DNA from: Lama guanicoe
Taxonomy: Eukaryota
Assembly: GCA_013239625.1 (NCBI GenBank)
Contig: MU053758.1
Coordinates: 744,001-808,000, forward strand
DNA: 64,000 nucleotides
Reading direction: 5' to 3'
A program made the translations under genes and the position numbers. The notes beneath the pieces are model-generated. The model ran no database searches. It had not been told where the DNA came from and worked only from the letters and a program-made list of their open reading frames with translations. Of this stretch, positions 20,264-62,695 are shown piece after piece (the first letter of the stretch is position 1; every line of letters starts with the position of its first letter).

Positions 20264-20369
20264 ATGCTGAGGATTTCCTGGCAGAAGGTTTGCGGAATGA
20301 GAACCTCAGTGCTGGTGCAAGGGACCACAGAGACCATATTCTACGGGGCTTTCAGCAAATCAGAGCTAG
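20264..20369 (+). CDS. SKAP1: SKAP1 coding exon 2 (N-terminal dimerisation region)
   Basis: Polypyrimidine tract + TAG acceptor at 20261-63 and GT donor at 20370. Translates (D)[34 protein letters not shown](R), nearly identical to recalled human SKAP1 [36 protein letters not shown]. 106 nt, phase 1 to 2. Confidence 0.97.
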
Positions 20370-47136: not shown

Positions 47137-47162
47137 GTACTTTTGGGATTATCAGCCCCAAG
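47137..47162 (+). CDS. SKAP1: SKAP1 coding exon 3 (26-nt micro-exon)
   Basis: ttctttgtatttcag acceptor and AAG/GTGAGT donor. Encodes (R)YFWDYQPQ(G) vs human RYYWDFQPQG. Phase 2 to 1, in frame with exons 2 and 4. Confidence 0.95.
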
Positions 47163-49611: not shown

Positions 49612-49910
49612 AACATAGCATGGTAGAGTGTGGATGTTACAGTCTGACAGACCTGGGTTCAAATCCCACCTACACCATTTAACTAAAGGTTATGTGACCT
49701 TAGCAAGTTGCTTAATTTCTGTGACGTTAGCTTCCTTGTCTACAAAATGGGGATGTGCCAGACATTGTGTTAAGTCTTATTTAACCCTCAGAATAGCCCT
49801 ATGAAATAGGTACTGTTAATATACCTATTTGATAGATGTGGATATTGAGGTACAGTGAGGTTAAGAGAATTGCTCAGGGTCATGCCCCTCAAGGATTCTA
49901 GCTCGGACAG
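49612..49910. mobile_element. Two adjacent MIR SINEs in opposite orientation
   Basis: Plus copy: gacctgggttcaaatccc...gtctacaaaatgggg. Minus copy: tagatgtggatattgaggtacagtgaggttaag. Confidence 0.75.
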
Positions 49911-49934
49911 TATGACTTCATAGCATTCACTCTT

Positions 49935-50325
49935 TTTGGAAAAATAAATAACAGCTTTATTGAGACACAATTCACACATCATAAAATTCACCCTTTAAAA
50001 GTGTACAAGGCAATGCCTCCCTCTATCTGACAGGCCTGGGGTAGTTACTGCTGCTAAGGTTTCCACTGCAGACGCAAGAGAAAAAGAGTCCTTGTGCTTT
50101 CTGTCTGATTGTGACAGGCCAGATTGAATGAGGGAAGACAGGGAAAAAATTTTTTGCAACTCAGGTGTAATTTTGTGAACAGTATAAGCCTGCTCTACTC
50201 CAAAGGGGAAAAAAGTATGCAAGTCAGTGGTTTTTAGTATAGTTACTCAGTTGTGCAAGCATCACCAATGTCTAATTTCAGAACGTTCATTACCCCAGTA
50301 AGAAACCTCATGCTCATTAGTAGTT
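49935..50325 (-). mobile_element. L1MA/MB 3' terminal fragment, split by the snoRNA retrocopy
   Basis: aacagctttattgagacacaattcacacatcataaaattcaccctttaaaagtgtacaa | tcagtggtttttagtata...; continuous once 50010-50223 is removed. Confidence 0.85.
50014..50143 (+). ncRNA. SNORA31: Retroposed box H/ACA snoRNA, SNORA31 (ACA31) family copy; retrogene or pseudogene
   Basis: About 130 nt with two hairpins, H box AGAGAA (50077-82) and ACA (50138-40) + 3 nt. Each box lies 14 nt from the base of its upper stem. The 3' pocket GTGCTT/TTGAAT is complementary to 28S rRNA AUUCAA-UG-AAGCGC. Strong similarity to recalled human SNORA31. Lies in a 201-bp insert with a 13-bp TSD. Confidence 0.85.
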
Positions 50326-62578: not shown

Positions 62579-62695
62579 GAGGAGACCACGCTGAAAATTA
62601 CTTTGGACAGGACAGCTCTGATGATAATCACAGTGGACCTCATGGCCCGTCTCTCACATCAGATGCACCTTTTTTGTCAGATTATCAGGATGATG
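62579..62695 (+). CDS. SKAP1: SKAP1 coding exon 4
   Basis: cttcttttctttcctttgggccctcag acceptor and G/GTGAGT donor. Encodes (G)[38 protein letters not shown](G) vs human [35 protein letters not shown]. 117 nt, phase 1 to 1. Confidence 0.96.

Follow-up and report, generated by a model that had tools for sequence, protein, structure and literature searches.

The window, by which we mean the whole 64,000-nucleotide stretch of the Lama guanicoe genome that was analysed, carries a 201-bp insert at 50010-50210, inside the 3' end of an older L1 element (sequence read directly between 49700 and 50500). The left arm of the L1 occupies 49942-50009 on the minus strand; it aligns to nine of 11 paralogous copies, never left of 49942, and includes an AATAAA at 49961-49956 in minus-strand reading. 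A short A run at 49937-49933, on the same strand, is probably a mark of the L1 tail. The right arm, from the same minus-strand L1, extends over 50211-50325, as indicated by genome repeat matches and by its contiguity with the left arm in the paralogues. The two arms meet the insert in copies of a target site duplication (TSD). The upstream copy, AAAAGTGTACAAG, lies at 49997-50009 and is preceded by TTT, giving a TTT/AAAA site of the L1-endonuclease type; it may reach as far as 50015. The downstream copy, AAAAGTATGCAAG, lies at 50211-50223 and was located from a repeat search together with the L1 paralogues.

Between the TSD copies, the insert reads on the plus strand. An 8-nt spacer (50010-50017), unlike the sequence upstream of the parent gene, separates the TSD from the snoRNA 5' end; either it is untemplated or its first six bases are a diverged continuation of the TSD. 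The spacer is followed at 50018-50143 by an H/ACA snoRNA pseudogene derived from SNORA31B, as indicated by a full-length match to Rfam family RF00322 and 77% identity to a paralogue in the TPT1 locus. The pseudogene comprises a 5' hairpin at 50018-50076, in which 50019/50075 and 50021/50073 are C-C mismatches, the H box AGAGAA (50077-50082), a 3' hairpin (50089-50135) with the pocket strands GTGCTT (50094-50099) and TTGAAT (50124-50129), and an ACA box (50138-50140) followed by GGG. Alignment to the parent identifies 50144-50201 as the intron directly downstream of the parental snoRNA. This 3' extension contains the hexamer AGTATA at 50181-50186, a decayed AGTAAA-type motif by copy alignment, and ends in ...CTACTCC, an end common to six other copies in the same alignment. 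An A/G-rich tail remnant, AAAGGGGAA, fills 50202-50210 and abuts the downstream TSD. The coordinates that the preliminary description had given for the H box, the ACA with its GGG, and the pocket strands all matched on direct reading. Its hairpin-H box-hairpin-ACA layout holds, but the 5' hairpin is unclean, with both C-C mismatches falling in a 7-bp basal stem.

The gene around the insert can be followed through exons on the plus strand. An exon encoding a SKAP-family N-terminal region lies at 20264-20369, with an AG acceptor and a GT donor, and its only match among PDB sequences is the SKAP2 N-terminus (residues 10 to 45; E 0.011). A 26-nt micro-exon at 47137-47162, with AG/GT borders and encoding YFWDYQPQ, is part of the same gene, since without it the exons on either side would not join in frame, and the next host exon, again with AG/GT borders, lies at 62579-62695. 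The insert is located 2.85 kb downstream of the micro-exon donor and 12.4 kb upstream of the next acceptor. On the same contig and strand, 183 kb upstream of the window, there is a Hox9-type first exon (C1600:560783-561298(+)). Hox11-type N-terminal domains were found beside the other three Hox9 genes and none on C1600; in a protein atlas, the Hox9 exon could not be told apart as HOXB9 or one of its paralogues. As HOXB is the Hox cluster without a Hox11-type gene, the lack of such a domain on C1600 points to the HOXB cluster, and in the human map SKAP1 follows HOXB1 in the same orientation. The plus-strand exons with AG/GT borders, the SKAP2-like first exon, and the upstream HOXB cluster support a sense position of the insert in a SKAP1-like intron, bounded by the micro-exon and the exon at 62579-62695, in agreement with the sense placement in SKAP1 first proposed. 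The host intron would count as intron 3 provided that just one exon precedes the window.

To establish which RNA family the insert belongs to, covariance and nucleotide searches were combined. At Rfam gathering thresholds, a scan of the whole window finds nothing at the insert, its sole match being tRNA-like (105-174). A SNORA31 assignment, for which the preliminary description had proposed an Rfam scan, is thus absent at that threshold but does emerge full length in a permissive scan of 49900-50320, where RF00322 matches 50017-50143(+) over model positions 1 to 130 of 130 with 39.4 bits, 0.6 bits below the gathering cut-off of 40 bits. The three other matches in the permissive scan each have E >=0.34. 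The RF00322 match has an E of 8.4e-6 for the 421-nt stretch, which scales to ~1e-3 for the window and ~40 for the genome, and the covariance score alone is therefore no genome-wide proof of identity. BLAST provides that proof: within the same genome, a SNORA31-type gene of the TPT1 locus aligns to the insert over 191 nt (77% identity, 141 bits), at a genome-scale E of ~3e-31. With the full-length RF00322 match and this alignment, the identification of the insert as a retroposed H/ACA snoRNA of the SNORA31 family is sustained.

A closer look at the TPT1 locus shows which of its snoRNA genes is the parent. RF00322 finds seven places in the 2.05-Gb assembly, two of them in the TPT1 locus and five in dispersed copies. 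The canonical SNORA31 scores 137.8 bits (C7146:28623284-28623411(-)), and a second paralogue, at 61.3 bits, lies on the same strand 1.2 kb downstream of it. Host identity at this locus is given by the last coding exon of TCTP/TPT1 (Pfam PF00838; E 2.3e-15), which is on the same strand, has an intron boundary, and lies 0.7 kb upstream of the canonical SNORA31 and 1.9 kb upstream of the second paralogue. Just 62 nt of the canonical gene align to the window insert, compared with 191 nt for the second paralogue. The 191-nt alignment, at 77% identity the very comparison with TPT1-hosted copies that the preliminary description had pointed to, spans G000:C7146:28622001-28622185(-) and includes ~55 nt past the parental ACA box. 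The source of the insert is hence the second, weaker TPT1-locus paralogue and not canonical SNORA31. We call this parent SNORA31B-like because a human SNORA31B, 129 nt long and in the TPT1 direction, is on record (PMC6028756); a chicken SNORA31B homologue is listed in a table (PMC3349704). Tables in PMC6466398 and PMC9941101 give SNORA31 as the guide for 28S-3713 and 18S-218 with host TPT1, and so agree with the 28S psi3713 target and TPT1 host named in the preliminary description.

The target site could be examined through other copies of the interrupted L1. The two TSD copies are identical at 11 of 13 positions, and a repeat search recovers the pair, extending it at 79% over 19 nt; the TSD may accordingly measure 13 to 19 nt. 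For the right-arm repeat there are 632 first-look candidates in the same genome, and the 40 of these that were scored show 76-82% identity over query positions 1 to 115. The window and the first loci yielded no further L1-arm copy usable as an empty site. Among 11 paralogous L1 copies, the two window flanks are contiguous in eight, which represent the empty site; the flanks are ~130 nt apart in one, and the upstream flank is absent in two. In seven of the eight contiguous paralogues, the alignments of the two flanks overlap by 10 to 12 nt, which indicates that the 13 nt are single-copy in the repeat and were duplicated at the window site. The 13-bp duplication at a TTT/AAAA site, as originally described, is thus upheld by its 11/13 identity and by the overlap of the flanks in the L1 paralogues.

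To the left, the paralogues stop at a common boundary ~60 nt from the insertion site, and to the right their lengths vary, a pattern of 5'-truncated elements on the minus strand. One paralogue (L033) encodes on its minus strand residues 1104 to 1162 of LINE-1 ORF2p (PDB sequence search; E 2.4e-25), with a weaker second piece covering residues 1163 to 1206 (E 0.0018). Pfam searches of six reading frames of the L1 paralogues returned no L1 family, only two sub-threshold chance matches. These boundaries and matches show that the flanking L1 is a minus-strand element. Its 3' end lies near 49933-49942, ~55 to 64 nt from the insert. That the 201 bp are not L1 sequence and interrupt an L1 3' end, as initially stated, finds support in the contiguity of the flanks and in the ORF2p match.

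The guide pocket of the window copy can still be matched to rRNA of the same genome. The AATTCAATGAAGCGCGGG sequence occurs once in the assembly, within a fragment that Rfam calls eukaryotic LSU rRNA (211 bits). TTGAAT is complementary to AUUCAA, and so is GTGCTT to AAGCGC apart from one G:U; the U-G between these two rRNA segments stays unpaired. The first base of TTGAAT lies 14 nt ahead of ACA, and in functional H/ACA RNAs the target U is ~14 to 16 nt away from the box. The single-G:U pairing of the 3' pocket with 28S rRNA reported earlier is thereby reproduced on the species' own LSU fragment. Here the parent reads CGCGCTT and the window copy TGTGCTT, a change that is plain CpG decay yielding wobble pairs by chance. 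By calculation, 12 pocket bases stay unchanged in 22-28% of cases at 10-12% divergence; an intact pocket is therefore no evidence of selection.

To ask how the rest of the snoRNA has fared, we measured divergence from a majority consensus of the long copies (10 sequences, four of them 5'-truncated and so adding noise in the 5' columns). Against this consensus, the window copy has 15 differences at 122 aligned snoRNA positions, plus five gap columns, and five differences at 60 extension positions (Fisher p 0.61). For the parent in the TPT1 locus, the counts are seven of 126 snoRNA positions and 11 of 56 intron positions (Fisher p 0.006), the signature of a constrained RNA next to an unconstrained intron. 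In the window copy, no purifying selection on the snoRNA relative to its extension is detected, the comparison being a within-genome proxy with small counts.

The hinge carries an ANANNA-type H box (AGAGAA) and the ACA box is present, the 3' end of the RNA being predicted from it. Intact basal stems beside both boxes are not found in the window copy: the 5' basal stem retains five of seven pairs, compared with seven of seven in the parent, and the 3' hairpin basal stem keeps five of six. The two C-C mismatches of the 5' stem arise from three substitutions, none of them compensatory, and in the minimum free energy (MFE) fold of the isolated 5' hairpin the basal stem no longer forms. H/ACA ribonucleoproteins need the basal stem of the 5' hairpin for assembly. 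In addition, a 4-nt deletion shortens the 5' apical region and leaves a 1-nt apical loop in the Rfam mapping. Over the whole RNA, 32 of the 38 pairs in the consensus are kept as standard pairs; the 5' hairpin accounts for 18 of its 22 and the 3' hairpin for 14 of its 16. Under the same mapping, which was anchored on the window copy, the parent has 33 of 38. The 136-nt stretch 50010-50145 has an MFE of -41.5 kcal/mol (z -0.41), and 60 of 200 shuffled sequences fold as well; its MFE fold draws no H/ACA shape, which says little either way.

Overall, the window copy differs from the consensus at 20 of 182 positions (K ~0.12). Mammalian neutral rates are 1.2-2.2e-9 per site per year. With ~11% divergence, these rates would put the insertion at a rough age of 50 to 100 million years, with which the two differences in the 13-nt TSD agree. 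A burst of H/ACA expansion in early eutherians, described in PMC13197249, is in agreement with this estimate.

The window copy belongs to a dispersed set. The 195-nt parent, used as a DNA query, finds 19 places, namely the parent itself, the canonical gene, and 17 dispersed copies. As this search missed the window copy, all copy counts are lower bounds, and alignment gives at least 18 dispersed copies with the window copy included. Their 5' end equals the snoRNA 5' end in nine of the 18, and the other nine are 5'-truncated. Seven copies (the window copy, L009, L010, L014, L016, L019, and L023) end in ...ACTCC followed by an A-rich or A/G-rich tail. Another seven (L011, L015, L017, L018, L020, L021, and L025) have a ~30-nt insertion after the ACA box and end ~25 nt further into the intron. 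Two copies (L013 and L022) continue into the parental intron, one (L012) stops just past the ACA box, and one (L026) is a 59-nt fragment. When the sister copies are scanned with RF00322, four score above the 39.4 bits of the window copy (53.5, 51.9, 45.6, and 42.8 bits) and five below it (35.8, 32.2, 32.0, 28.1, and 27.5 bits), and the remaining seven of the 17 scanned are above E 1. The scores around 39.4 bits form a continuous series, placing the window copy inside a series of decay.

The seven copies that share the ...ACTCC end are independent, each with a mature 5' end or an L1-type truncation, and each with the one 3' end ~58 nt into the intron after AGTAAA. This hexamer ends 15 nt before the shared 3' end in most of the long copies; it reads AGTATA in the window copy and GGTAAA in the present parent.

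Two accounts of the shared end were compared. According to one, cryptic cleavage and polyadenylation at AGTAAA produced the 3' end of the RNA; according to the other, L1 reverse transcriptase primed internally on a genomic A-run following ...ACTCC. Internal priming is a possibility to which we give the smaller share of belief. It draws on the present parent, which has CTCCCAAAAAT at this very point, and on the longer sub-family, which has CCAAAAAAGAAT, but it does not account for the AGTAAA that most long copies hold at the 15-nt spacing expected of a poly(A) signal, nor for L014 and L016, whose long, A-rich tails exceed what the parental A-run supplies. On a mild reading, the window copy would belong to a set of seven or more fossils left by a discrete ~185-nt RNA with a snoRNA-capped 5' end and a polyadenylated 3' end, a proposal with more support than that of a working guide.

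The anatomy of the insert has counterparts among described snoRNA retroposons. Type-2 snoRTs, including cases with cryptic poly(A) signals and G-containing tails, were described by Weber in 2006, with 1 to 10 untemplated nucleotides at snoRT 5' ends (PMC1687206). As in the Type-2 snoRTs of that paper, the window copy begins where the mature snoRNA does, a few extra bases aside, and takes in part of the downstream intron, and it likewise has a short, A-rich, G-containing tail, a TSD, an L1-type site, and a sense position in an intron of a new gene. More precisely, the snoRNA start at 50018 lies 8 nt past the 13-nt TSD, or 2 nt past a 19-nt one; 50144-50201 aligns to the ~55 nt downstream of the parental ACA box; and the AAAGGGGAA tail is accompanied by a TSD identical at 11 of 13 positions, the TTT/AAAA motif, and an empty site in eight of 11 paralogues. 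Whereas the examples in the 2006 paper are mostly lineage specific, the window copy, at 77% identity to its parent, is much older and more decayed. ACA31 has no occurrence in the main text of that paper.

Also comparable are the human ACA31b and ACA31c retrogenes of Luo and Li (2006), which are located at chr17:19.5 Mb and chr2:4.85 Mb, have TSDs of 7 to 17 nt, and are 88-89% identical to their parent (PMC1802619). Like them, the window copy is L1-made, intronic, and of the ACA31/SNORA31 family (PMC1802619). It differs in being from another species, in its 77% identity, in its origin from the second paralogue, and in its intron extension. Compared with SNORA31 and SNORA31B themselves, it keeps the layout of two hairpins with an H box and an ACA box, and its 3' pocket sequence is unchanged save for C-to-T changes that give G:U. 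Unlike these genes, however, it lies outside the TPT1 locus, falls below the Rfam cut-off, has a broken 5' basal stem, shows no sign of constraint, and carries 58 nt of intron plus a tail. The literature found for SNORA31 in combination with SKAP1 made no mention of the window copy. New here are the parentage in the second paralogue, the 3' extension of parental intron, and the minus-strand orientation of the L1.

Taken together, the region 50010-50210 is very probably a dead Type-2 snoRNA retroposon that has decayed neutrally and most likely has no present function. It is presumably not expressed; of 24 sequencing runs listed, three are recorded as RNA and hold 0.07 to 0.13 of the sampled words, shares that speak neither for nor against expression. 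The anatomy suggests an RNA from the TPT1 locus whose start was the mature 5' end of SNORA31B-like, the second paralogue, and which continued for ~58 nt past the snoRNA into intron sequence before a short A-rich tail. This RNA would then have been reverse-transcribed by the L1 machinery at a TTT/AAAA nick within an older minus-strand L1, in what is the present SKAP1 intron. As the counts show, the copy has evolved neutrally since its insertion, and CpG decay and other substitutions have struck the snoRNA part no less than the functionless extension. The 5' hairpin basal stem is disrupted by three uncompensated changes, and the boxes and the 28S pocket survive by chance. Today, the copy would be transcribed only within the intron of the SKAP1 pre-mRNA and degraded with it.

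The preliminary description had instead suggested that the copy could yield an extra guide RNA with a bias to lymphocytes. Such an H/ACA RNA would be excised from the SKAP1 intron, assemble with dyskerin, direct pseudouridylation of the 28S site of SNORA31/31B, and follow the tissue bias of SKAP1. The lack of any sign of constraint, the broken 5' basal stem, and the place of the copy in the middle of a decay series speak against this proposal, and we regard it as very unlikely. Much of what a guide requires is admittedly there. The sense intronic position is permissive for H/ACA processing, the H box, the ACA box, and the box-to-pocket spacing are intact, and the pocket still pairs with 28S rRNA; the 3' hairpin keeps 14 of 16 pairs, the overall count (32 of 38) is close to that of the parent (33 of 38), and the Rfam score of 39.4 bits is near the cut-off. 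snoRTs in sense introns are, moreover, described as processable if their elements are preserved (PMC1687206). However, conservation of the snoRNA part does not exceed that of the extension in the window copy, unlike in the parent; the 5' basal stem has its two C-C mismatches from three uncompensated substitutions, and the 5' apical region its 4-nt deletion; the pocket changes are plain CpG decay; and the target site is already served by two guides from the TPT1 locus. That the copy might be excised from the SKAP1 intron and stabilized through its near-intact 3' hairpin and ACA box, to act as an extra guide for the SNORA31/31B 28S site in T cells, is a speculation for which we see only a slim chance.

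Some other use of the sequence, such as supplying snoRNA-derived small RNAs, forming a hairpin like that of a miRNA, or influencing SKAP1 splicing as a structured element within the intron, is exceedingly unlikely. H/ACA-like miRNA precursors have been described (PMC2730528), and at -41.5 kcal/mol the free energy of the 136-nt stretch is low, but this energy is no better than that of shuffled sequences (z -0.41; 60 of 200 as good), there is no sign of constraint, and the nearest splice sites are 2.85 kb and 12.4 kb away. Equally improbable is a duplication at the DNA level, or gene conversion, from the TPT1 locus in place of retroposition. Such an event would explain the presence of parental intron, which is unexpected for a copy naively viewed as processed, but it leaves unexplained the TSD at an L1-type nick site, the A-rich tail, a 5' end that coincides with the start of the mature snoRNA, and the 3' end shared with six other dispersed copies. 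It was rejected on the TSD, the tail, and the shared ends; the anatomy is that of the Type-2 snoRTs (PMC1687206), intron included.

As a dead retroposon, the window copy carries little biological weight by itself, as it adds another decayed member to a class known since 2006. The sister copies give a minor by-product. snoRNA-capped templates with an mRNA-like 3' end are rare, two cases being reported in the 2006 paper (PMC1687206), and the seven copies add a multi-copy example; if the fossil-RNA reading is true, SNORA31B once made, or still makes, an RNA species of ~185 nt. Retrocopies of snoRNAs in sense introns can become new guides, and each candidate deserves a check. The window copy illustrates that, in a sequence otherwise evolving neutrally, chance can leave the boxes and the guide pocket intact.

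Seven independent copies of the parent, the SNORA31B-like gene in the TPT1 locus, end at one and the same terminal base: the copy in the window (3' part at 50144-50210) and those at six dispersed genomic loci (L009, L010, L014, L016, L019, and L023). An AGTAAA-type hexamer precedes this end. The shared end hints at a discrete 3'-extended SNORA31B RNA. Several of these copies carry G-rich tails, such as AAAGAGGCGGGGGG in L010 and AAAGGTTGGGGCGGGGG in L019, in agreement with the G-containing tails remarked on among snoRNA retroposons (Weber 2006, PMC1687206). Two further SNORA31B copies, at ~1500-1700 of loci L013 and L022, read past the usual end into the parental intron (…GAGTTTACAAG…). These are either Type-2/Type-3 retroposons of greater length or duplicates that arose at the DNA level.

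The 28S target, complementary to the 3' pocket of the window copy, has its sole exact genomic match at locus L027, 1359-1710 (G000:C55229, ~10.30 Mb). This match sits in an isolated ~350-nt LSU rRNA fragment (Rfam model positions 1891-2388 of 3401), with no full rDNA unit around it. Since the only exact match is an isolated fragment, the rDNA arrays seem to be unassembled in this genome assembly, and the L027 fragment seems to be an rRNA-derived pseudogene.

Within the host gene, the frame between exons 20264-20369 and 62579-62695 depends on a 26-nt plus-strand micro-exon at 47137-47162, which encodes YFWDYQPQ. Its acceptor is an AG behind a strong polypyrimidine tract, and its donor reads GTGAGT. 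A tRNA-like sequence on the minus strand at 105-174 (Rfam tRNA, 38.7 bits) is probably not a tRNA gene but a tRNA-derived SINE, since similar matches are also found in the unrelated loci L014 and L017.

Seven other dispersed SNORA31B-derived copies, each at ~1500-1800 of its locus (L011, L015, L017, L018, L020, L021, and L025), form a sub-family. They share ~30 nt inserted directly 3' of the ACA box, diagnostic changes, e.g., CCAAGATT, and a 3' end ~25 nt deeper in the parental intron (…TTTGAGTTA, followed by an A-rich tail). Together, these common features point to a second source, which would be an older parent allele or a formerly active secondary copy.
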